Source: an uncultured Nitrososphaerales archaeon (GTDB lineage: Archaea > Thermoproteota > Nitrososphaeria > Nitrososphaerales > Nitrososphaeraceae). From it: a DNA stretch of 23,930 nt. Positions 4,070 to 20,732 of the stretch are shown here, one piece after another (position 1 is the first letter of the stretch; every line of letters starts with the position of its first letter). Where the stretch lies: the NCBI GenBank assembly GCA_963709405.1, contig CAVPXM010000049.1, forward strand, positions 1 to 23,930. The letters are read 5' to 3'. Below the pieces are notes generated by a model, which ran no database searches, was not told where the DNA came from, and saw only the letters and a program-made list of their open reading frames with translations. The translations under genes were made by a program, and so were the position numbers.

Positions 4070-4749
4070 GGCTCTGTTCACTTAATGATAAAATCTATAG
4101 ATTGAAGATGTCCTATCTCGTTTTATGAATACAAGAAATAGAACATCTTTAGAATATATTGGCCATGGTCTATATTTTTATTTATTTTCAGGTCTTTCAT
4201 TAAGAAAGACATACGAAAGATTATCGTCTTGTTTTATAAAGAGAAATCATGTATCAGTCTGGAATCGGATACAAAAGTATAAACCCAAAAAGATATTTGA
4301 CAGGAAAAAGAAAATCGAGGAATTCATCGTTAAGTAAACACAAATAAAAATTGGTTCAGAATTGATATGGCTTTGGGTTGCTATCGAACTTGAGAGTAAG
4401 GAAATCCTTGGAATTAGTATATCCAAAGAGAGAGAAATATTATGCTTCTAGCTGAGCAATTTATTTCAAGCCTAGTTAAGATTCATGGTCAACATCTAGT
4501 TTCCACAGATGGAGGTACTTGGTATCCACAGGCTTGCAGGTTCTTGAGATTGTCCCATCATATCCATTCTTCCTATGAGAAAAGCATCATAGAAAGGACG
4601 ATACAGTACATAAAAGATAGAACCGAATTCTTTGATGACTATTTTCCTTGCAGAAAGAAGAATTGTAATTTATTACATGTGTGGAATTGGTTAAATCTAT
4701 TTGTAGGTTATCATAACAAGCAATTACAAATCGTTAAGTGAATAGGACC
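4070..4749 (+). mobile_element. IS6-family insertion sequence
   Basis: TIRs GGCTCTGTTCACTTAATGAT (4070-4089) and GGTCCTATTCACTTAACGAT (reverse complement of 4730-4749), 16/20 identical; about 680 bp. Confidence 0.85.
4125..4741 (+). pseudogene. IS6-family DDE transposase, disrupted
   Basis: YLFSGLSLRK..RNHVSVWNRIQKY, stop where the first catalytic D(E) is expected, IKIGSELIWLWVAIE, frameshift, VSTDGGTWYPQACRFL, EKSIIERTIQYIKDRTEFFDDYFPC. Confidence 0.88.
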
Positions 4750-4757
4750 GGATAAAG

Positions 4758-5960
4758 GGCCCTGTTAACAGTTATGTAAAGAATATGTAATGCTCTTCTG
4801 TAAACTAACAGTGCTCGTTCAGATACCATAACACCTTTAGCTTACTCTCTTTTAAATTATCAGCATGAGGGATACATTCCTCAGATTGCTTACAAATAAT
4901 GAAAAGAATAGGTTACATGATAGCATACTTGAGGATAGAGAATCTGGATACCGTGCAAAGATTATTCTTCTTAAGGATGATGGATACACAGTTCCTGAAA
5001 TAAGGAAGGCAACTAACCATCATGATAGCAACATAAGAAAATGGATTCATCGTTTCAATGAAAAAGGTATAGATGGAATAGCATCAAAAATACACAAGCA
5101 TAAACCAATCAAAATATCTGACGATATGGAGAATAAGATTGTGGAGATAGCAACCAAAAATTCAAGAAAAGATTATGGATTACCATTTTCCACATGGTCA
5201 TTAAGAGGTACTAGCAGGATTTGTCTCCAAGGAGATGAGCCTTGTAGATGCTATCAGCCACACCGAGGTTAGAAATATCCTCCTAAAACACGGAATAAAA
5301 TATAGGCAGTCAAAGATTACTCTGGGACACAGCCTAGATCCTGAATATCATTTGAAAAAAAGAGAATTGAAGAACTAAGATACAGTAACCTGTCTTCTGA
5401 CTCAGTACCTACTCTACGAGGATGAGAAAGGACCGATAGTAGCAAAAACATATGGCGGTACATCTTGGTCCTCTACACAGTCTAAGGTATCCAAAGCTCA
5501 AAAGACAAAGGGAATTCTAAACGTGTTTGGTATATACGATTATACCAATGATCAAATGTGGACGCATGGCTACAAAAAGAAAACCGGAAAACAGTTTTTA
5601 GATTTTATCAAAAGAATGGACCAAAAGTATGACGATAGTATCAAGCAGATATTTCTGATACTTGATAACGTATCGATACATAAATCAAACAAGGTGAAAG
5701 CAGTATTATCCAAATATCATCCAAGGATACACCTTGTATTTCTTCCCACCAGATCACCCGAGCTCAATCTGATAGAGGTAAGATGGCTATGGATGCAACG
5801 ACAAGCAATAAACAATTCCACCTTTCAAAATGAACGTGATATAGGTAAAGCAGTATCTGATTGGGCATGTGATTATAATAAAAACATAGAGGCAAAACTA
5901 GTATAAACAGTTTACATGGAGAAAGCATCTACATGTTTACATAACTCTTAACTAAGTGCC
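4758..5960 (+). mobile_element. IS630-family insertion sequence
   Basis: Inverted ends GTTAACAGTTATGTAAA (4764) and GTTAAGAGTTATGTAAA (reverse complement, ending 5952), with TA at 4766-67 and 5949-50. Similarity extends outward to GGC at 4758 and 5960, so the exact boundary is uncertain. Confidence 0.8.
4865..5906 (+). pseudogene. IS630-family transposase, frameshifted
   Basis: HTH (IRKWIHRFNEKGIDG), FSTWSLR, A7G slippery site at ~5355-5362 (typical programmed -1 site), YEDEKGP, ILDNVSIHKS, FLPTRSPELNLIE. Two additional indels (~5208, ~5408). Confidence 0.9.
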
Positions 5961-6590
5961 AACGCATTCTGTAAGTATATCTGTAATCCGATCAACCTTG
6001 GAAGCATTATTGGCTGCCAACGTGGCAATTCTGACACATTCTCTAATGTTTGCGCTTAATTTGTTGAACACTGATTCAGCAATAAGGATGGCAATATCTT
6101 TTTTCAATGTCTTTCTCTCCATTCAGGATCCCGACAGGAACTTCAAATTCTTCTTTAGTGTAGGATTTAAGATGAATGACTATAAATCTCGTCAATAACG
6201 GAACTAATAGTCTGTCTGCCCTATTAGCACTAGCAAAAACGCATGTCTTTAATCGAATCATTCTTTGCTGTCTATGTTTAGCTCAGATAATATACCGGAC
6301 TCCATTAGATTCGATAGATTATATTGATCTCGTTTATTCATCTTGTCGATCTCGTCTATAATGAAGTATCGAGGTCTGTGTTCAAATAGGTAATCGAATA
6401 TTCCAGATTTAGTTGAACTACTACTACTACATAGTAAGAGCGTTCCAATTTTGTAAGACAATTTATGAACAATGTTTTAGCAGACGCTGGGGATCCAACT
6501 AACAGAATGTGAACCGACTTGCATACATGTAATGATAATTGAAGCACATTCTTTAAACCAAGAACCTCCATGATATAGTTAAATAGTTCG
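5961..6590 (-). pseudogene. MCM-like AAA+ ATPase (compact), fragmented
   Basis: HILLVGSPASAKT (Walker A, cf. MCM GDPGTAKS), SSSTKSG, FIIDEIDKM (Walker B), NLMESG, VFASAN (sensor 1), PLLTRF (Arg finger), spread over several frames. The 3' end abuts IS630. Confidence 0.8.
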
Positions 6591-11807: not shown

Positions 11808-12865
11808 TTTTTTGGACAAGTCATCAGATATCGTCTTGCGTGGATAAGTGAAAGCAATTCGTTATCGAGCTGCGATTTATACTGTCTTAGTATGTATAGA
11901 TGAAAGCCGAATGGGATGGTGCGCCATCCTGCTCTAAACAATACCGGTAGAGATTTTATATCGCTTTTCGTTTTGCATATCTCTAATACGACTGGCCGTC
12001 TTACACGTTAAGATATTACAGAATATTACCAAGTGTCTAATTAATCAAAAGCAGGTTGAGAGAGGACTTGATATGGCGCAAATGTGGATTTATACATAGA
12101 AATTGGATCTGATATCATTTAACACCCAGGATACCCGGGTTATTTTCTAACCTAAAGAAGAATTTTCTTTGGATTCAGAAAGAATTATGAAAGGAAAGTA
12201 AACCAACAGATAAAATCAGATGTGTGTGGGAATAGATTTTATGAACATATAGAAGAACAAAAAACTGCGGTATCAGAATACCTAAACAAAACATTTGGAA
12301 TATGGTATGACGACATTAAATATGACACTTGACTTAGAAGATGCTCTAACGGAACTAGAGACATACCAAAGTTTTTTAGCAGATATTATGGATGAAGAGG
12401 CTAGACGTGAAATGAATGAGTAAGATTAAAAGTTGTTAATCACGCATATGTGCTACATTAAGCGTGCACCTCATGGTAGACGTTCATATTTTATCATCTT
12501 AACCAAACGTCAGTCTATACATTTGATCTCTCAATTCAGAAAACCTTTTTAATCTGATTTATTTCATAACGTAAATAGAAGATGCTATGTCCGATATGTT
12601 TATCCTGGATCTGATCTAATATCCGATTGGATGTACCGTATCTTTTACAAATATTAGATACTGTATCGCCAGTCCATTCTTTTTCGTGTATTAGATTAAA
12701 CCTTGTTCTGCTTTCTATATGGATTCACTTCCTGCCAGAAGTGTAACCCATGTCTGTAAGCTAAATTGTCACCTATGTTAGGAAGTACAACAGCTAAGTA
12801 AACGTTGTAACGAAAGGGAATTTAAATTACGGATGCGAGTCAAGGGCGCGCGCGCAAGAATCTGA

Positions 12866-13773
12866 TCATGTGTGCAACTTTTCCTGTATAGCAGCATCTA
12901 ACCTCACCCCTGGATACTCTTGACGCTCTTTTCTAATTCTAATTCCATTACCCTGTTTCATATCCTTTGAGTAAATACGAAGTAATGCATGTTCTCCGTC
13001 CTCCCATGTCATCTCGAATTTCTCTCCTGCGTACTCACTTGAAGAATCTGTACCAAAGTGCCACATAGTTACAATCCAGGAATTATGATTTGGAATATGA
13101 ATTTGAGGCAAGTGGGTTATAGCATGTGGGCAGCCTATTACCGATGCCAACAGTCTCTCTTCTACCGATGTTAGTATACTTGACAAGCGGATAAGACCTT
13201 CATGATCAACAACTACTGGTTTCATAGAACATGATATGATGACACTCACTGTATCAGAATGGTGCACAATTGTCTTTGCCTCCATATCATAGGTCTGAAT
13301 AGGCATTAGAGAAATATCTTTACTCACTCCATTAGGTGTCAGCTCAGGATGGTACGATGTATGGTTGACCAGATCCCTTCAGTTTTGAATCTAAGGCGGA
13401 TATTGTGTACTGAGTGTCTTTCAGACTGTAAGTTATCGATAAATGACAGTGATGACACTGGAGTGACCACCATACGGTTATCTGTCACTGCCGGTTTAGG
13501 TTTAGCAAAGTTAAATCCCTTTAAGCTGTAAAATGCAGGACCAGAATAGTATTCTAGTTGCGCATAACCATTTCTTACATATTGCGAAATCTTATTCCTA
13601 TACGTTCCATGAGTCATGCTATATTTCTTGTCATCTACTTCAAATTCTAAAAAATCGAGATAACAAAACGGTCTTTTCTCGAATCGTACTATCCTTTGCA
13701 TATGAACCTTCATTGCATAATCTAACTTTGTCTTGCCCATTCCTTCGTCGCCCAGAATACTAAACACTAGCAC
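12866..13773 (-). pseudogene. Hypothetical protein (possible replication initiator) split by one frameshift
   Basis: ORFs 13339-13773 and 12866-13327 join at ~13355 (..GIWSTI /fs/ YHPELTPNGVSKDISL..). wHTH-like N-terminus (HGTYRNKISQYVRNG), HNIRLRF, IVTMWHFGTD. Rep function is inference. Confidence 0.6.
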
Positions 13774-13788
13774 GTGTCAGTGTCATCG

Positions 13789-14466
13789 TTAATTCGAGTC
13801 AAATTGTTGTTCTCCTATTCGAATGTCAGTTAGTCTTCTATTGACAACATCAACCTTAGCAGCAAATAAGACTTCAGACACAGCACTATTCTTTCTAAGA
13901 GATGATTGCATATGGCTGCGCAGCTCCTCAAATGGAAATTCGAATTGGACATCAAATGATTTATTGTCTTCATAATTATCTGGTGTGTACGCTTCTAACT
14001 CAGACATTACTTCTAGATCCTTACCAACAGGAGATGCATCTGTGTTCAGATTTTCTATATCTGGAGGTCGGCCCTCATAATTTACAACATCTGATGTTGC
14101 AGCTGATTCAATTTCCGAGTTTCCGGATGCGTCAACCTCAATTTCTTTCATATTCTCCTTTGAAAGCGAAGTATCTTCGCTTTTGGTCGTGTATTTGCGC
14201 TTATACTCTGGTGGTAAGCAGTCTTCTATCCACTTTGCAGTGATCTTTCCTTCCCTTATCTTATCTTTCAAGATCTCTTTTATTTTTCTAGATACTTGAT
14301 CCCTTTCACATCGCTTGCTTTCATCCAGGCGGCGCGCGAGTTCATGTATAAGATCCTTTGCCTTCATGAAATTCTTGCCAAGTTGATCAACAACTAGCCT
14401 AAGGTCAATGATGATGCCTTTGATTGTTTGATCGTCTGAAAGACTATTATCATATTCTTCATTCAT
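13789..14466 (-). CDS. Hypothetical helical/HTH-like protein with in-frame palindrome
   Basis: 225 aa; upstream GAGGT RBS-like site; paralogs at 9297 and 20733. Confidence 0.8.
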   Translation of the reverse strand: MNEEYDNSLSDDQTIKGIIIDLRLVVDQLGKNFMKAKDLIHELARRLDESKRCERDQVSRKIKEILKDKIREGKITAKWIEDCLPPEYKRKYTTKSEDTSLSKENMKEIEVDASGNSEIESAATSDVVNYEGRPPDIENLNTDASPVGKDLEVMSELEAYTPDNYEDNKSFDVQFEFPFEELRSHMQSSLRKNSAVSEVLFAAKVDVVNRRLTDIRIGEQQFDSN

Positions 14467-14486
14467 GTCTCTTTACCTCTCTTTAA

Positions 14487-14690
14487 TTAACTATGTCGAC
14501 GCATCCGTGTTTTGGCAGAACCCTTAGATCGCGCCTCTTTGGCATCCTCAAATTGTCGATACCGGAATATGCATTCGTCTTCTTTCTCAGTTACATCATG
14601 TTCTAACTGCTGAATTCTACTTTTGTATTCTTCGTATTTGGTGCAATTTGATTGATGGTTTTCGAATAATTTATTATTAGCATATGTCAT
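14487..14690 (-). CDS. Small coiled-coil hypothetical protein
   Basis: 67 aa; start overlaps the upstream stop (ATGA coupling). Confidence 0.6.
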   Translation of the reverse strand: MTYANNKLFENHQSNCTKYEEYKSRIQQLEHDVTEKEDECIFRYRQFEDAKEARSKGSAKTRMRRHS

Positions 14691-14893
14691 GTTTGTTGCA
14701 CCTCTTGGAATTTAGCAACACAATCTCTGCAAAGCAGTAGGGAAATTACTCCTAGGTTACCAACTTTTACCACAATCTTATCCGTAGCCTTTGAATAGCA
14801 TCCAGCAGCTTCGCATGTAACACTAAGTTCTGAATTGTTCTGATTTCTTTCTGTGAAAGTAAGTTCTTTAGTTAACATGAGTAAGATCCGCAC
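14687..14893 (-). CDS. Small Zn-finger protein
   Basis: CEAAGC...LCRDC four-Cys motif; first gene of the operon; true start may be ATG 14878. Confidence 0.7.
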   Translation of the reverse strand: MRILLMLTKELTFTERNQNNSELSVTCEAAGCYSKATDKIVVKVGNLGVISLLLCRDCVAKFQEVQQT

Positions 14894-14925
14894 ACTAAAA
14901 ATAGGTAAATGTTTTTTCGCATTTT

Positions 14926-15741
14926 ATGGCTGAAGAAGAAAAAAACCCTTCTCAACTGAGTGAGCTAGAAAATCATTATGTTGATCTTTATGTCATAAAT
15001 TGTGCTGCATTGTACCACATTTTAAGGATAAGATATAATGGTCCAAAAGACATTGCAAAAAAGATATTCATAAAGACTGCGAGGTCTAAGATTAAGATGG
15101 CTGAGAATTACTTGTTCTCATATGGATATAGAAACCCGCCTGCCATTTTTTCGCCTACTGAGTTAAATAAAATGCTTAAGAGAGATCTTGGAAAACCTCA
15201 CGGTTTATCTGACAATGAGACGTATTTGCGCCCTGCCGTTATTACTCAGATTCTGCAGGAGCTGGAACAATATGAAGTATATCATAATGTAAAAGGGAAA
15301 AAAGAATTGAGGAGACAAAAAAGAATAGGATCAGAAAAATCAAATTTCATCTACAAACGATCAGGCGGTAGACCTTCAGCCTACATGATTTCAGATATCT
15401 ACTCTAAGTCAAACGAAATTATCAGTAAGCCTGAAGTAAGAAATTTGATCCGCAAAAAACTCATTGATTATAATATTGGATTGCCTCTATGGAAATATAT
15501 ATTCATGGCAATTTTCTATTCATTCAAGATAGATAAAGAGGCGGCATCCAAAATACTTCTAATGGTTGGCCCGCCAATAGCTGAAGTAGATCCGTCTAAA
15601 ATTCAATCTCTATTCGATGAAATTGCTTCACTTGATGAGAACAAATTTGAAGAATTATCCGAACTGTACTCCAAACTTATGTTAGATAGTGGTTTTCATT
15701 TTTCAGTAACTGGTTTCTTGGGACTTATGCAACACAAGTAA
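14926..15741 (+). CDS. Putative winged-helix regulator of the integrated element
   Basis: 271 aa; FSPTELNK..ITQILQELEQ..SGGRPSAY wing-like motif; divergent from the operon. Confidence 0.65.
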   Translation: MAEEEKNPSQLSELENHYVDLYVINCAALYHILRIRYNGPKDIAKKIFIKTARSKIKMAENYLFSYGYRNPPAIFSPTELNKMLKRDLGKPHGLSDNETYLRPAVITQILQELEQYEVYHNVKGKKELRRQKRIGSEKSNFIYKRSGGRPSAYMISDIYSKSNEIISKPEVRNLIRKKLIDYNIGLPLWKYIFMAIFYSFKIDKEAASKILLMVGPPIAEVDPSKIQSLFDEIASLDENKFEELSELYSKLMLDSGFHFSVTGFLGLMQHK

Positions 15742-15921
15742 CAATATTACTCATATCATCTGTATAATCGGTAATACCCCAGCATAGCGCTTATCATACG
15801 TAAGTATGTAAATTTTCAGATTTATATAATTAAAGAGTTTGTCTTTGGTAGCTCAATAAAATATTTGAATCACATATCTACCAAATGATGCAGAAAGATG
15901 ATTCAAATAGAATCAAGTAAA

Positions 15922-17139
15922 TTAGCCAAGTTTCTTTTTCATTAATATCTCTGGCTTGACTTGCGTTAATTTAGGATTACGCTGTATCATTGACATAATC
16001 TGATTGAATCGCTGATTAGTCTCATCACGGATACTCTGTATATCATGTTCATATTTCTGCTTCATTGCTTGCATTTCCCTATCCTTTTCAGATAATTTTG
16101 ATTCAATGCTCTTGCCTCTAGCTTCCAGTGCAGTATAGTCAAGGAATGTAAGATACTTCATACATTTTGTGAGATAAATCTCTCTTCTCTCAGACTCTTT
16201 TTTCGTGTAATAGACGCTACCATTATGACCTAAGAACCATTCACTGTAGTCTCCTCCGACCTCATCAGAGAGCACTGTTTTGACAAAGCGTCGTAACGAA
16301 TGAAGTGTGATCTTCCTTCGTCTCATTCCATCTTTCCTTTCATCTAAACCAGCAACCTTTAGTACTTTAGTAAATTCTGTTTCTAACTTTATGTACAGAG
16401 TCTCGGGCTTTGATTCTACGTTAAATGTATTGAATATCAGATCATCGGGATTTAAGCTTCTTTCACGATATTTCCAATCTAACCATTGCTTAAGATATCG
16501 AGTTGTTTCATCTGAAATGAAAATATCTCGTGCAACTCTTGTTTTAGTATAGTCTGCGCGAATACGTATCATAGTGGGGTTGGCGTTAAAATTGATATCC
16601 TTTATTCTTATTGCACATCCTTCAACTGCGCGCAGTCCTCCGGATGCCAGAATCAAGAGATATGTTTTAAGCCTGCGGTTATTGCACGACAATAGGATTT
16701 TTCTAATATCTGCGGCATCTATTGGCTCCTCCTTCTCCTTAAGGGTTTTTGGTATCTTTACTTTCCTTTTAAATTTTGATGGTATGATATCTATATCGTA
16801 ATATGCAAAGTATGATTTTATACCTACTAGGTGAGTTTTTATGCTCTGGGGTTTACTTTTTTTCAGATTTTCCTTTATACATTCAAAGGAAACAAAATCA
16901 TCGAGTAACTCGTAAACATTTATCTGATTACATGATAGTGAATCGATAATAGAATCTACATTATATTCGCCGTTATATCGATTGTAAAGGAATCTTTGTA
17001 GGTGGACTAGCGCGGTTCCATAATTGCTTCTAGTCCTTATGCTGTTCTTTCCTATAGTATCTAAAAATGCTCTAGGCTTAGCATGTTTCTCAATTTTCCT
17101 ACGCACAGACTCCATTAACAATAGTTCATTTATGCTCAA
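15922..17139 (-). CDS. Tyrosine recombinase/integrase
   Basis: Full catalytic set: GGLRAVE (R), TKT (K), HSLRR (HxxR), LGH, SVYY (Y); N-terminal SAM-like region and C-terminal coiled coil. Confidence 0.95.
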   Translation of the reverse strand: MSINELLLMESVRRKIEKHAKPRAFLDTIGKNSIRTRSNYGTALVHLQRFLYNRYNGEYNVDSIIDSLSCNQINVYELLDDFVSFECIKENLKKSKPQSIKTHLVGIKSYFAYYDIDIIPSKFKRKVKIPKTLKEKEEPIDAADIRKILLSCNNRRLKTYLLILASGGLRAVEGCAIRIKDINFNANPTMIRIRADYTKTRVARDIFISDETTRYLKQWLDWKYRERSLNPDDLIFNTFNVESKPETLYIKLETEFTKVLKVAGLDERKDGMRRRKITLHSLRRFVKTVLSDEVGGDYSEWFLGHNGSVYYTKKESERREIYLTKCMKYLTFLDYTALEARGKSIESKLSEKDREMQAMKQKYEHDIQSIRDETNQRFNQIMSMIQRNPKLTQVKPEILMKKKLG

Positions 17140-17298
17140 TTCTAAATATAAACTATTTTAGTTATTATTTCATGTACAATATTTTATTCTTATACTGAAG
17201 ATTTTAGATAAAACAACAACCGAGTGGAAAAGGTTATGAAGTACGATATGTCACTTTAGAATAAGATAGGATGTAATCTGTCAATTAGAGTCATAATA

Positions 17299-17691
17299 AT
17301 GAGTACAAATAATAATAATAATCATATGTTGCAGTTTTTAAATCAAAAATACATAAATCTTGAGACTTACCGGAAAAATGGTCAGTCAGTACATACTCCG
17401 GTGTGGTTTGCTATAGACGGTGGGACAATATATATTAGAACCGATGTGCATTCTGGGAAGGTAAAACGCATGAAGAACAATCCGCACATACGCGTAACTC
17501 CCTCTGGAGCTCGCGGAGAGGCTAAAGGTAAATGGCTGGAAGGTCAGATGAAAATGGCAAGTTCTTTAGAATCTGAAAAGGCAAATCAACTTCTTGAACA
17601 AAAATATGGCGTACAAGGAAAATTAATTAGACTGATCAACAAGATTAGACGAACTAGGCCGATAGTACTTTCAATTCAAATACAAACATAG
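17299..17691 (+). CDS. PPOX-class F420-dependent oxidoreductase
   Basis: KYINLETYRKNGQSVHTPVWF..SGKVKRMKNNPHIRVTP..RG..KYG signature. Confidence 0.92.
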   Translation: MSTNNNNNHMLQFLNQKYINLETYRKNGQSVHTPVWFAIDGGTIYIRTDVHSGKVKRMKNNPHIRVTPSGARGEAKGKWLEGQMKMASSLESEKANQLLEQKYGVQGKLIRLINKIRRTRPIVLSIQIQT

Positions 17692-17966
17692 CTATGATTG
17701 TGAATACCGACTACAGAAAGTAGTTAGACATATGATGATTATTGCAAAGCGGAATCAAGTTGACATTTGAATCATTTTGATCTATTATTTATGAATATGC
17801 ATGATGAAATACATTCACATATAATACCATATATTCAGTATTTTTGTATTGTATAGGCCAACTAAATTTTTGAACGTGATTCCACATGCTGGGTTATAGA
17901 CTGACGGTATGATACGTCCATTTTTCTGAATGGCGATCACGCTATGGTTTGATAGGCTGATTTTAG

Positions 17967-18056
17967 TCATTTCTTTAGTTTTCTCTCCATATTATCCGTA
18001 AGCCTATTCAGTAAATCATCGAATGATTCACCAAACTTTCCAATCTCTCTAATAAC
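17967..18056 (-). pseudogene. C-terminal remnant of a small RHH/antitoxin-like DNA-binding protein
   Basis: VIREIGKFGESFDDLLNRLTDNMERKLKK*; G-ESFDD-L-RL is typical of small archaeal RHH proteins. The N-terminus is absent next to the CRISPR repeat. Confidence 0.6.
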
Positions 18057-18076
18057 CTATCCGAAAAGTAGTTGAG

Positions 18077-18173
18077 GTTGTAACTTGACTAATATAGGAT
18101 TGAAATAATCACTAGGCGGTACTCCGTCGCCCCCGCCTAGATGGTTGTAACTTGACTAATATAGGATTGAAAC
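18077..18173 (+). CRISPR. Orphan mini-CRISPR array, 2 repeats and 1 spacer
   Basis: 30-bp repeats GTTGTAACTTGACTAATATAGGATTGAAA(T/C) at 18077-18106 and 18144-18173 with a 37-bp spacer. GTT start and ATTGAAAN end match Cas6-processed type I/III repeats. No cas genes in the window. Confidence 0.8.
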
Positions 18174-18335
18174 TTGATACATGCATACTAGGTATAGGTA
18201 GATGAGCTAAAGCCTCATATTCTTCTGACATGACGCAATTTTTCTCCTTAAGCATATAGAAAGAAGCTATAAATTAAAAGTTCCTAAATAAGGGACAGGT
18301 CTGGATGCTGTGACTCCATATTTGTTATTTTTGTT

Positions 18336-18485
18336 TCAAGAGCGTGGGACATGGCGTCGCTTAGTTTGGACATAGGAGCTTTTTCTGCCGAAGCGTTTTT
18401 TGATGGGGATTAATGCTATAGTAGCTAACAGTGTTACTGCTAATGCAATAGCTACATATTCACCTCTAAGTTTTGTGGAGGTCAT
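18336..18485 (-). CDS. Small signal-peptide/TM protein, possibly a frameshifted remnant
   Basis: MTSTKLRGEYVAIALAVTLLATIALIP.. (49 aa); an alternative frame continues SKNASAEKAPMSK.. to a stop at 18284. Confidence 0.4.
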   Translation of the reverse strand: MTSTKLRGEYVAIALAVTLLATIALIPIKKRFGRKSSYVQTKRRHVPRS

Positions 18486-18529
18486 TGTGAGTCCTAACGT
18501 CTAGAATTATTTAAGGTTTGTTAAATACT

Positions 18530-18684
18530 TCTGCTATAATGTCTGTTATAAAACGACTGTTTGGAGAGCATCTGATGTCTAGATTGACTAGAACACAGAA
18601 TAGGGAATTGTCATTCAGATGCATAACCTACAACATGCATAGACTGACTAATCTGATAATACTGATGATGTTTTCTACAGAGCC
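18530..18684 (+). mobile_element. 3' fragment of an IS5-like DDE transposase with right end
   Basis: IMSVIKRLFGEHLMSR..QNRELSFRCITYNMHR followed by the IR-like end GTTTTCTACAGAGCC. Confidence 0.75.
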
Positions 18685-18692
18685 GAATCAAT

Positions 18693-19809
18693 TTAAAATA
18701 CTATATACATAAGAAAGCAACGCTCTTTGATTCTGTTATCTTTTGTTTTAACTCGAAATGTTCCAAAAGTTCCTTTTGCAGTCTTAACAAAATCAATCAA
18801 CTCATCATTGTTTATTACAATTGATTTCTCAAGTTGTTCTTCTTCTTTGTTTATACGATAAGCCCAATTCTTTTCTTTTATATTGGTTAGATCTGTAGAT
18901 TGGTCCACTTGAGTCGATAACGATGGATCTTTATTACTATTATTAATAGCAGCTGACTGCACATTACTATCATGTTTTCCAGCTGTCAAATCAGAAGGAT
19001 AGGATGGAGGGACCAATTCTTCAGCCTTTAAATATATATTCCTTTGAGAAAATAAGGCACCAACTGTCAAATTTCTAGCTAACGTCACCAGAAAATCGAT
19101 AAACTCGCCGTACAACTCATTTTTCTTATTTTGAATATCCAAAACATTTAGGGCATGTGCAACTTTTTTAGGATCGCATTTATGGTTAGGTTTAACTTGT
19201 AATAGTGATATCAAATCTCCTTGGTTGGACTGGGCCCAATATGACAAACAGTTATAACAAATGTAGCCTCGAAATCCAACAATATTTTTATTCGTGCCCC
19301 ACATATTTCGTGTTGTTGAATTATTATAAGAATTCAATAGGTTAGGGGGTGATGGCGTAGTAAAACCGCTAAATGGCCACGAAATACCTCCCTCCTATAG
19401 CTGATGGTTGCCAGAAAGTGGGTCGACGTCGTTGTTTTGTGATATTTATTATTTCAAGTGCTTGACGTATGGTTTCTAGTAGTTCATGGCCTGCATCTCT
19501 TTTTTTGAAAGATGATGATTCCTTTAATTTCTTAGAATCTAGTTCTGAAAAATGACCATATGATGGATAAGTTTGATGATAGCTGCCATTATTATTATCA
19601 GGATGATAATAATGCCTATCATTTGTTGTTGGCATATTACTCACATCAGAACTACTGAATTGAGTACTAGTTGCATATGACCCTGGTGTTGCTGGTTTTG
19701 CTTTTCCACTATGCTTTCTCTGAATATGTATCTTTAGATTCCAGTTTGTAGAACAGGTTTCAGTGCAATAAGGACAGAGAATCTGTTTTTTCTTTCCAGT
19801 CAAGCACAC
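18693..19809 (-). pseudogene. C2H2 zinc-finger protein, probably one gene split by a frameshift
   Basis: CPYCTETCSTNWNLKIHIQRKH in ORF 19369-19809. The frame of ORF 18693-19337 (GFRGYICYNCL..HKC) stays open back to ~19395, overlapping at GGAGGGAGG. Confidence 0.7.
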
Positions 19810-19920
19810 TCACTCCTGAAAGCGTTTTGTACGACATCTTCATCATCTGCTTTACTGCAGTCACATCTGCAGAGCCTCTGCAGAGCTACTTTTCCTAAAT
19901 CACATTCTAAGTATTTCATA

Positions 19921-20374
19921 ACAGAGCTAAATCAGGTACAAAACGTAGTATTCTGGTAGATGGTAAAGGAGTACCACTTGGTGTATGTGTAGATGGAGCT
20001 AACAGGCATGACATGAAGATGACCAAAGCAACATTGCAAAGCATAGTCATCTATAGACCTGAACCAACAATCAGATCAAAGCGAGCACATGTGCATGGAC
20101 AAAGGCTACGCGTTTCCAGAGGTATACGAATTACTGGAAGAGTATGGCTATACAATTCACATCAGATTAAAAGGAAAGGAAAGAAGCAGCATTAAAGAAG
20201 GAATACCAAAATACAGAGCTAGACGATGGGTTGTTGAAAGAACCCATTCTTGGATGAACAGATTCAGACGATTGCTGGTAAGATGGGAAAAGAGGATTGA
20301 AAACTATATTGGAATGTTACATTTTGCATGTGCATGGATCACCTATAGAAGAAGTGGACTTTTCGCATAGGCTC
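19921..20374 (+). mobile_element. 5'-truncated IS5-family (IS427/IS1031-like) element
   Basis: RAKSGTKRSILVDGKGVPLG..GANRHD /fs/ CMDKGY..RWVVERTHSWMNRFRRLLVRWEK; right end TTCGCATAGGCTC followed by TAA. Confidence 0.85.
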
Positions 20375-20732
20375 TAAGTAATTATATAATCTTCGTATGA
20401 ATAATGACGAAAAAATTAAAGCATAAAATTCATATCTTATCAATAAATTGCCTAGAACAAAATTTCTAGAAAGATACTCAATGAATATTATATGTCTTCC
20501 AGGAAATTAGGCTCGTCATAAGATCTTTGAATAACTACGGCCGCTATGTAGACTCCAGCCTGTTCTAGCAGGCTATTTCGCTCTTTTCATGTTATAATTT
20601 TTGCTTCATGATATTTTTGCGAGTTTAAGGTTAATAATTTCCGTCAATTTTGATTAGAATATCGCTAGCATTATTTTTCTATGAATAAGGTTGGACTATT
20701 GAAGAAGGATTTTGTGGTTTAGTGTAGTAGTT

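Follow-up and report, generated by a model that had tools for sequence, protein, structure and literature searches.

A CRISPR-like repeat pair in a soil archaeon is probably the cargo of a short, multi-copy element linked to an insertion sequence

What is a CRISPR unit with a single spacer and no cas genes doing in an archaeal chromosome? The question is raised by the stretch of DNA analysed here (the window), 23,930 nt of contig CAVPXM010000049.1 (C49 below) in GCA_963709405.1, an assembly of an uncultured Nitrososphaerales archaeon with 4.83 Mb in 100 contigs, 91% completeness and 37% GC. The assembly encodes archaeal AmoA (E 5e-118) and the DNA of the host is found in soil and peat metagenomes, from which we read it as the metagenome-assembled genome (MAG) of a soil ammonia-oxidising archaeon. 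A first-pass annotation had noted two 30-bp repeats around a 37-bp spacer in the window, without cas genes or an obvious leader and close to an integrase gene, and had proposed that this mini-array serves a mobile element in competition with other elements, yields a regulatory or decoy RNA, or is the relic of a deleted array. We propose a different origin: the unit is probably a 148-bp non-autonomous element, similar to a MITE (miniature inverted-repeat transposable element), which derives from a CRISPR array fragment captured by an insertion sequence (IS) and amplified at about 15 sites. The reading is built on direct observations, namely a family of copies, modules that are shared and ordered, an IS-type left end, the linkage to one IS subfamily (IS-A), the CRISPR origin of the repeat and a gene split at the site.

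The sequence GGTTGTAACTTGACTAATATAGGATTGAAA stands twice in the window, at 18076-18105 and 18143-18172 (30/30 identical); aligned to a CRISPR RNA (crRNA) register, which is used in Table 1, the repeats end in ATTGAAAT and ATTGAAAC, respectively, agree at 29/30 positions and enclose the 37-nt spacer AATCACTAGGCGGTACTCCGTCGCCCCCGCCTAGATG. With a period of 67 nt they are regularly spaced direct repeats within the 23-50-nt range of CRISPRs, and the first-pass description of the unit is borne out: at up to three mismatches the window holds two matches to the repeat, where 100 shuffles lead one to expect 0.00, no cas gene is among the 19 window open reading frames (ORFs) scanned against Pfam, and no leader was found upstream of repeat 1, where the preceding 24 nt are an IS terminal repeat and the flanks vary among loci. 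No Rfam family reaches its gathering score in the window, CRISPR-DR2 giving two sub-threshold matches of 22.1 and 19.1 bits (gathering score 37). As RNA, the window repeats are unstructured and the spacer forms an 8-bp GC hairpin (-13.2 kcal/mol, z -2.99, equalled by 0/200 shuffles). The unit is laid out as IR1-R-Sb-R-Se(27 nt), where IR1 denotes the IS terminal repeat, R the CRISPR-type repeat and Sb and Se two inter-repeat modules, and it measures 148 bp (18053-18200). Homology to the other copies spans 18050-18200, both ends of which pair in the RNA fold, and ceases at 18200, inside Se at …CTAGGTATAGGTA, which resembles an inverted IS end (…GGATAGGTTC). DNA metagenome contigs bridge both junctions (three metagenomes, three studies; e.g. 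X7 17166-18163 and X5 18054-18565), contigs of other copies part from the window sequence at 18048-18050, and the summed metagenome depth over the element is 6-14x that of its flanks (three DNA metagenomes, three studies).

The consensus of the repeat family, GTTGTAATTTGACTAATATAGGATTGAAAC, has 36 matches in the genome at up to three mismatches and none in the reversed control. At up to eight mismatches, 45 matches fall into 16 loci, that is, a cas-linked array with a different repeat on contig C46 and 15 non-cas loci with one to five repeats each (handles beginning with A). The sequences between the repeats recur from locus to locus as modules Sa, Sb, Sc, Sd, Sg, Se and Sf, whose 36-38 nt are the lengths of real spacers in this repeat family. 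Sa (ACTCTTCATCTGAGATTGTAGGTGTGTATGTTGTTGT) is present at six loci, Sc at three, Se in full at A3, A7, A8 and A15, and Sb (AATGACTAGGCGG, a loop of 12-14 nt and CCGCCTAGATG) in 12 copies at 11 loci. The spacer of the window is one of these Sb copies and its neighbours are recurring modules as well, hence it is neither a private spacer nor a unique, foreign-derived one as in a CRISPR. The modules of all multi-module loci follow one order, Sa, Sb, one of Sc, Sd or Sg, one of Se or Sf and a terminal half repeat (GTTGTAATTTGAC), as in A9 (IR1-R-Sa-R-Sb-R-Sg-R-Sf-half R), A14 (IR1-R-Sa-R-Sb-R-Sc-R), A3 (IR1-R-Sa-R-Sb-R-Sb-R-Se-half R) and A2 (IR1-R-Sb-R-Sd-R-Sf-half R). A fixed order from which each locus holds a subset is expected from inter-repeat deletions in one ancestral array of, roughly, at least seven spacers; and the presence of the same spacers at many loci, within an IS-linked fragment, points to a captured and amplified piece of an array and not to private immune memory. 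Elsewhere in the genome the modules have nothing beyond chance matches of 14-18 nt, and the hairpin motif of Sb, with 11 occurrences in the arrays, has none. The upstream flanks of the arrays are mostly unique; the element is thus, like a MITE, short, devoid of a transposase and present in many copies at unrelated sites.

The linkage to an IS is seen at both sides of the arrays. Eleven of the 15 loci open with GAACCTATCCGAAAAGTAGTTGAG, which is joined at the same base to repeat 1 (junction ...GTAGTTGAG/GTTGTAA) and preceded by TAA or TTA (TAG at the degenerate A12). This 24-mer agrees at 23/24 positions with one terminal inverted repeat of IS-A, a 981-bp element of the IS5 family. With thresholds of 90% identity or more and a length above 600 bp there are six IS-A copies, each of them immediately behind the GTTGTAATTTGAC+TAA of an array and all in a single orientation; a further IS-A fragment on contig C38 (167 nt, 89% identical) has no adjoining array. 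Each of the five longest IS-A copies is broken into at least three reading-frame pieces. A sister subfamily, IS-B (about 80% identical, 941 bp, about ten further copies), includes copies with intact orfA and orfB or a fused 282-aa frame, and complete IS-B copies have identical TTA or TAA on both sides in 7/7 cases; at loci A10 and A11, IS-B copies occupy the half-repeat site in the opposite orientation. Both subfamilies have the DDE_Tnp_1-type transposase, the terminal inverted repeats and the short TNA duplication of IS5 elements, and the IS family is present in 27/61 sampled genomes of the taxonomic family (12/18 genera), a tally which counts the host genome and the unpublished G054. The content of the arrays tracks the IS-A sublineage: A7 and A15, whose IS copies are 98% identical, agree in their modules and in the Sb loop, and a variant repeat before Sf is common to A1 and A9. 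It follows that array and IS-A were copied together.

We propose that a small type I-B array of the genus, with 30-nt repeats, 36-38-nt spacers and a truncated last repeat, would have become enclosed by IS5-family ends, giving a composite in the order IS terminal repeat, array, half repeat, TAA and a degenerate IS-A copy. The composite would then have been copied to new sites, presumably with transposase provided in trans by intact IS-B, and recombination between the 30-nt repeats may have trimmed each copy to its own subset of spacers. The window copy would have kept the IS end, two repeats, Sb and part of Se, stopping at the IS-end-like sequence in Se, and would have been inserted at a TA/TAA site in a small vapB-like gene, which it split.

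The two parts of this gene lie directly on both sides of the element. The first-pass annotation had described a truncated ribbon-helix-helix (RHH)-like gene abutting the array; the gene is real, albeit with a weak family match (Table 1), and it is split by the element rather than merely truncated. Excision of the 148 bp fuses both parts in frame, resulting in a 38-codon ORF. The restored frame is support and not proof, since one length in three restores a frame by chance. The interrupted gene also bears on the proposal that a normal array eroded in place to one spacer, which is very improbable. Small orphan arrays with the same repeat and unique spacers do exist in relatives (G006 and L046), which would fit such erosion; at the window site, however, an IS end bounds the unit, the modules are the same as at ten other loci and the halves of the gene adjoin it, so that this proposal is already contradicted. 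The notion of a relic survives in one respect: the family as a whole descends from an array, while the window copy would have come by insertion and not by decay.

Several points weigh against the capture of an array by an IS as we describe it. An IS-type left end together with a complete IS-A between matching TAA copies occurs at locus A9 only, and the left IS end is absent from three of the six IS-A-linked arrays (A1, A7 and A15), so that any assignment of the ends used in movement is tentative. On its right, the window copy has just a look-alike of an IS end, its exact truncated form occurs once, and the target duplication is ambiguous, with TAA on the left versus TA(G) on the right. No empty site was found in six congeners, where only a PNPOx-like gene of the region is common, or in metagenome contigs, none of which skips the element; a paralog of the A3 flank, which stops at the IS end, was rejected as an empty site, being itself a repeat. 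The IS-B copies at the half-repeat site of A10 and A11 make target-site preference an alternative to capture that is not fully separable from it. Finally, repeats can be misassembled in a 91%-complete MAG of 100 contigs.

A further difficulty lies in the loop of the Sb hairpin, whose hypervariability is not accounted for by simple copying. Among the 12 Sb copies there are 11 different loops, and mean pairwise identity falls to 55% in the loop, versus 93% in the left flank and stem and 88% on the right; Sa, the repeats and the left flank are conserved at 92-99% and the right flank at 88%. Locus A3 has two different Sb units in tandem, hence the ancestral array may have held several Sb-type spacers, of which one was kept per copy; a targeted diversification of the loop is the bolder alternative. 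We rejected the loop as a guide to insertion sites, since its longest exact match to its own flanks averages 7.0 nt versus 6.85 nt for the flanks of other loci. Likewise rejected was a virus-derived hairpin: the motif CTAGGCGG-N10-14-CCGCCTAG has 45 IMG/VR matches, a count estimated to be about that of chance, and none has Sb flanks or loops.

The repeat family is, as judged from its relatives, of true CRISPR origin. The 3' 20-mer of the repeat is found with at most one mismatch in 14/121 genomes of the taxonomic family and 9/18 genera, the host being counted, and so the lineage does hold a related CRISPR repeat, a point on which the first-pass annotation is supported. Arrays with unique spacers of 35-40 nt occur in G017 (nine repeats), G070 (nine) and G043 (three), and G069 has six regularly spaced matches to the 20-mer (search output only). 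In the congener G001 the repeat is part of a type I-B locus with cas6, a 5-repeat array (GTTAGTATCTGACTAAGATAGGATTGAAAC), a 611-aa ORF, cas7 (Csh2), cas5h and cas3; the five repeats of this array agree with the repeat of the copy family at 24-26/30 positions, and it closes with a truncated repeat. Orphan mini-arrays in G006, of the same genus, and in the metagenome contig L046 have a repeat that differs at one position and is identical, respectively; both have other spacers and a truncated last repeat, and neither has an IS end. The full repeat is present in 2/41 relatives searched, the host and G006, thus the amplification is specific to the host species. Exact matches number 0 among IMG/VR viral contigs (20-mer) and 0 in the genomes of other species (22-mer).

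This ancestry bears on whether the family might be a non-CRISPR mosaic repeat of the BOX, BIME or BrickBuilt MITE type, with a likeness to CRISPRs that arose by chance. Its modular build, its IS-type ends, the sub-threshold Rfam matches and the existence of MITEs with internal tandem repeats (PMC4596501) would all suit such a repeat. It is, nonetheless, highly unlikely and already largely contradicted by an identity of 25-26/30 to repeats from genuine arrays, including a cas-linked one of the same genus, and by the 66-68-nt period and truncated terminal repeat that these arrays share with it.

Two observations on CRISPR repeats in relatives stand on their own. The nine-repeat array of G017 (L032, G017:C14:311392-311956) has unique spacers and no cas genes nearby, and a DevR-type Cas7 was not found in this 98%-complete genome. 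In G020, which belongs to another genus, an element of about 2.4 kb is present three times (L034, L035 and L036; 97% identical). In it a 275-aa ORF and a zinc-ribbon ORF flank a solitary CRISPR repeat (…TCGTATCTGACTAATATAGGATTGAAAC), and just downstream it has TTAGTTGCTCCC in common with module Sg; it is a second multi-copy carrier of a CRISPR repeat in this archaeal family.

The CRISPR-Cas system of the host itself is encoded on contig C46, in the order cas6 (C-terminal half), five repeats GTTTAAATCGAACTATTATAGGATTGAAAG with four unique spacers, cas8b (Cst1-type), cas7 (Cst2/DevR), cas5 and cas3. Comparison with the host array, which the first-pass annotation had called for, places the repeat of the copy family at 23/30 identity to this I-B repeat, with a common 3' part ...TATAGGATTGAAA, and nearer to the cas-linked I-B repeat of G001. 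The first 900 nt or so of C46 (L019), with 60-70% GC versus 37% in the genome, contain an ABC-transporter fragment and cut off the N-terminal half of cas6; this start of the contig is probably a chimeric assembly join. Cas1, Cas2 and the RAMP families were not found, in an assembly whose completeness is too low to claim their absence; the G001 Csh2 Cas7 query detected no homolog in the same assembly, and the sole Cas6 homolog is that of C46, 37% identical in the comparison with G001. Besides the C46 array the assembly has no further CRISPR-like periodic array, the other periodic repeats being coding tandem repeats. A near-perfect 57-bp tandem repeat of at least nine units (G000:C63:208930-209616) is probably coding. 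Spacer 2 of the C46 array matches the host's own contig C30 (156439-156456) exactly over an 18-nt core and at 22/36 positions overall (E 0.001 in the short-query search), which may be due to chance.

With this system in the host, the unit might be a working orphan mini-CRISPR, whose sense transcripts would be cut by the host Cas6 and guide the I-B Cascade-Cas3 to a competitor element or to the regulation of a host gene. We regard this as unlikely. The host does have the cas genes listed above and an array of its own, its repeat has the common 3' part, the modules have the length of real spacers, and Anabaena is described as processing orphan arrays that lie far from its cas genes (bioRxiv 10.1101/2020.04.14.041012). 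Contigs from an oligo-dT RNA library cover array copies, although strand, ends and transcription are not readable from contigs, and they may be DNA carry-over and, with 13 differences over 121 nt, come from other copies. The supposed spacer, moreover, is a strong hairpin common to 11 loci, and the IS end abuts repeat 1 where a leader would lie. The closer relative of the repeat, that of G001, is tied to a Csh2-type Cas7, which is among the families not found in the 91%-complete host assembly, together with Cas1, Cas2 and RAMP. No protospacers of the modules or of the window spacer were found in the host genome, where matches are again chance ones of 14-18 nt; among phages and plasmids an array reached no E value below 0.03 and the window spacer none below 3; and IMG/VR has no match to the exact cores of either. 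The competitor that the first-pass annotation had envisaged as a target has therefore not come to light in any of these searches, the window spacer having no match better than E ~3. A scan of the window for bacterial promoters and terminators, whose models do not suit an archaeon, gave chance-level results. We judge an immune or guide role at the window site unlikely because the unit has no leader and the split gene's promoter, the one evident in the sequence, would read it antisense; going by these features, the element is most likely immunologically idle there.

A decoy or regulator RNA is less likely still. The repeats would titrate Cas6 or Cascade, in the manner of Racr RNAs, or a crRNA-like RNA would repress a gene by partial pairing, in the manner of CreA, in either case to the benefit of the IS family. 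That IS-linked elements have scattered some 36 repeat units across the genome, and that interference genes but no adaptation genes were found for the host I-B system, would fit a decoy; solitary repeat units (SRUs) and mini-arrays on mobile elements have been proposed as inhibitors of host CRISPR-Cas, according to a review (PMC8616872). Expression of the arrays is putative, however, 7/30 positions mismatch the cas-linked repeat of the host, no toxin gene or cas operon adjoins the arrays and the partial matches in the genome are at chance level. A related conjecture, which we consider improbable, is that the IS-linked array fragments were kept since their RNAs act on the adaptation-less I-B system, be it as guides or as a multicopy decoy under whose cover the IS family and other mobile DNA would be safe, with the Sb hairpin, its stems conserved and its loop hypervariable, as the functional, diversifying part. 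If this were true, the element would be a transposon with CRISPR RNA genes of its own.

The element and its neighbours are listed in Table 1. The integrase that the first-pass annotation had placed near the array is indeed there, in a separate multi-copy segment (12850-17184, three to five copies) together with neighbour genes that could not be annotated, and the unit is an orphan on a mobile element, as had been proposed; its carrier, however, is the IS5-type element and not the integrase element. Between integrase and array lies the PNPOx-like gene, with 77-81% DNA identity in four of the six congeners. The possibility that IR1 (18053) and the end of the IS-B remnant (20374) delimit one unit within the vapB-like gene was rejected, as the start of this gene is at 18231 and not past 20374.

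Table 1. Positions of the element and of neighbouring features in the window
Feature	Coordinates	Strand	Evidence or remark
Integrase	15922-17139		PF00589; ~0.9 kb from array
51-aa ORF, possible partner gene	17815..17970	-	overlaps stop of split gene; no family match
C-terminal part of split small vapB/RHH-like gene (…REIGKFGESFDDLLNRLTDNMERKLKK)	17970..18053	-	weak PF02697 VapB_antitox match, E 0.059, sub-threshold
Putative target-site copy TAA	18050..18052		IS-type left ends preceded by TAA/TTA (TAG at degenerate A12)
IR1, 24-nt IS5-family terminal inverted repeat TAACCTATCCGAAAAGTAGTTGAG	18053..18076	+	abuts repeat 1; 23/24 versus IS-A transposase-start end GAACCTATCCGAAAACTAGTTGAG
CRISPR-type repeat 1 GTTGTAACTTGACTAATATAGGATTGAAAT	18077..18106	+	2 mismatches versus family consensus GTTGTAATTTGACTAATATAGGATTGAAAC
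Spacer-like module Sb, hairpin CTAGGCGG-13 nt-CCGCCTAG	18107..18143	+	loop found in window copy alone
CRISPR-type repeat 2 (…ATTGAAAC)	18144..18173	+	repeat search
First 27 nt of module Se, ending GGTATAGGTA	18174..18200	+	inverted look-alike of IS end GGATAGGTTC; right end of window copy
Start of split vapB-like gene	18201..18231	-	AAGGAG ribosome-binding site, ATG, MSEEYEALAH; directly right of element
IS-B remnant	19921..20374	-	81% identical to IS-A positions 25-470; ORF 20089-20370 matches DDE_Tnp_1_2 and DDE_Tnp_1

The rest of the window is likewise rich in repeated DNA. Segments 1-2361, 4073-6481, 12187-12803, 12850-17184, 18534-19866 and 19921-20534 are repeated elsewhere in the genome, with up to 40 copies per segment, and the first 6.9 kb or so has no ORF above 250 aa. 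A second, unrelated 149-bp multi-copy element lies at 18536-18684, with about 18 copies in the assembly (75-96% identity) and a metagenome depth of 10-30x that of its flanks; in other copies it is preceded by a conserved sequence ending …GATGAAACC. In segment 18687-19673, which holds a 214-aa ORF and the start of a C2H2 zinc-finger ORF, the two parts that were compared, 18687-18800 and 19274-19673, have copies of 96.5-100% identity near the end of contig C30 (G000:C30:255469-256448).

The usual interpretation of an orphan mini-array is either immunity in decay or a weapon of some virus or plasmid; here an IS would have taken up an array fragment and multiplied it in one archaeal chromosome. 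Single-spacer "orphan CRISPRs" can, on this evidence, be transposon cargo, in which case their shared spacers are uninformative on past infections. The element adds to the heavy load of mobile elements known for large-genome soil ammonia oxidisers, and it offers a natural case in which to ask if a resident type I-B system is disturbed by repeat units in many copies.

Among known systems, the unit would probably be classed with MITEs or composite IS elements, with a CRISPR mini-array as cargo. The linked IS we take to be of the IS5 group with an orfA/orfB frameshift and a TNA target duplication: like other members of the family, the 941-981-bp elements have DDE_Tnp_1/DDE_Tnp_1_2 domains and two frames that overlap, end in inverted repeats of about 20 nt and are flanked by TTA/TAA; unlike in ordinary IS5, IS-A is a degenerate subfamily that is always joined to part of a CRISPR array. 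CRISPR repeat-like sequences are used outside normal immunity by CreTA and by Racr RNAs. CreA adjoins cas genes and a toxin gene and pairs with the promoter of the latter, while Racrs imitate the host repeat and are borne by phages or plasmids. Neither genomic context was found at the window element: the scanned ORFs include no cas gene and matches in the genome are only the chance ones of 14-18 nt. Nor does the unit lie in a virus, provirus or plasmid, as the PNPOx-like gene shared with congeners parts it from the integrase and the 20-mer is absent from IMG/VR.

Our literature search returned no description of CRISPR arrays that have shared spacers and are borne by an IS or MITE. The orphan arrays of Anabaena sp. 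PCC 7120 (bioRxiv 10.1101/2020.04.14.041012) are alike in being several small loci that lie far from cas genes and whose repeat is akin to a cas-linked one; they have different spacers and stem from fragmentation, whereas the archaeon has the same spacers at many loci and IS ends as borders. The mini-arrays and SRUs of viruses, proviruses and plasmids (PMC8616872, PMC6858448) also have one spacer between a full and a full or truncated repeat, a mobile carrier and a dependence on host Cas proteins; the window unit differs from them in its IS/MITE-type carrier within one chromosome, in having no detectable target and no leader, and in a repeat that agrees with that of the host at 23/30 positions instead of being near-identical. 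The BrickBuilt MITE of Porphyromonas gingivalis (PMC4596501) is likewise a short non-autonomous element with inverted-repeat ends, a variable internal array and many copies in one species. BrickBuilt, however, is made of 23-nt repeats without spacers and has no CRISPR ancestry, whereas the archaeal element has as its cargo a type I-B repeat-spacer array.

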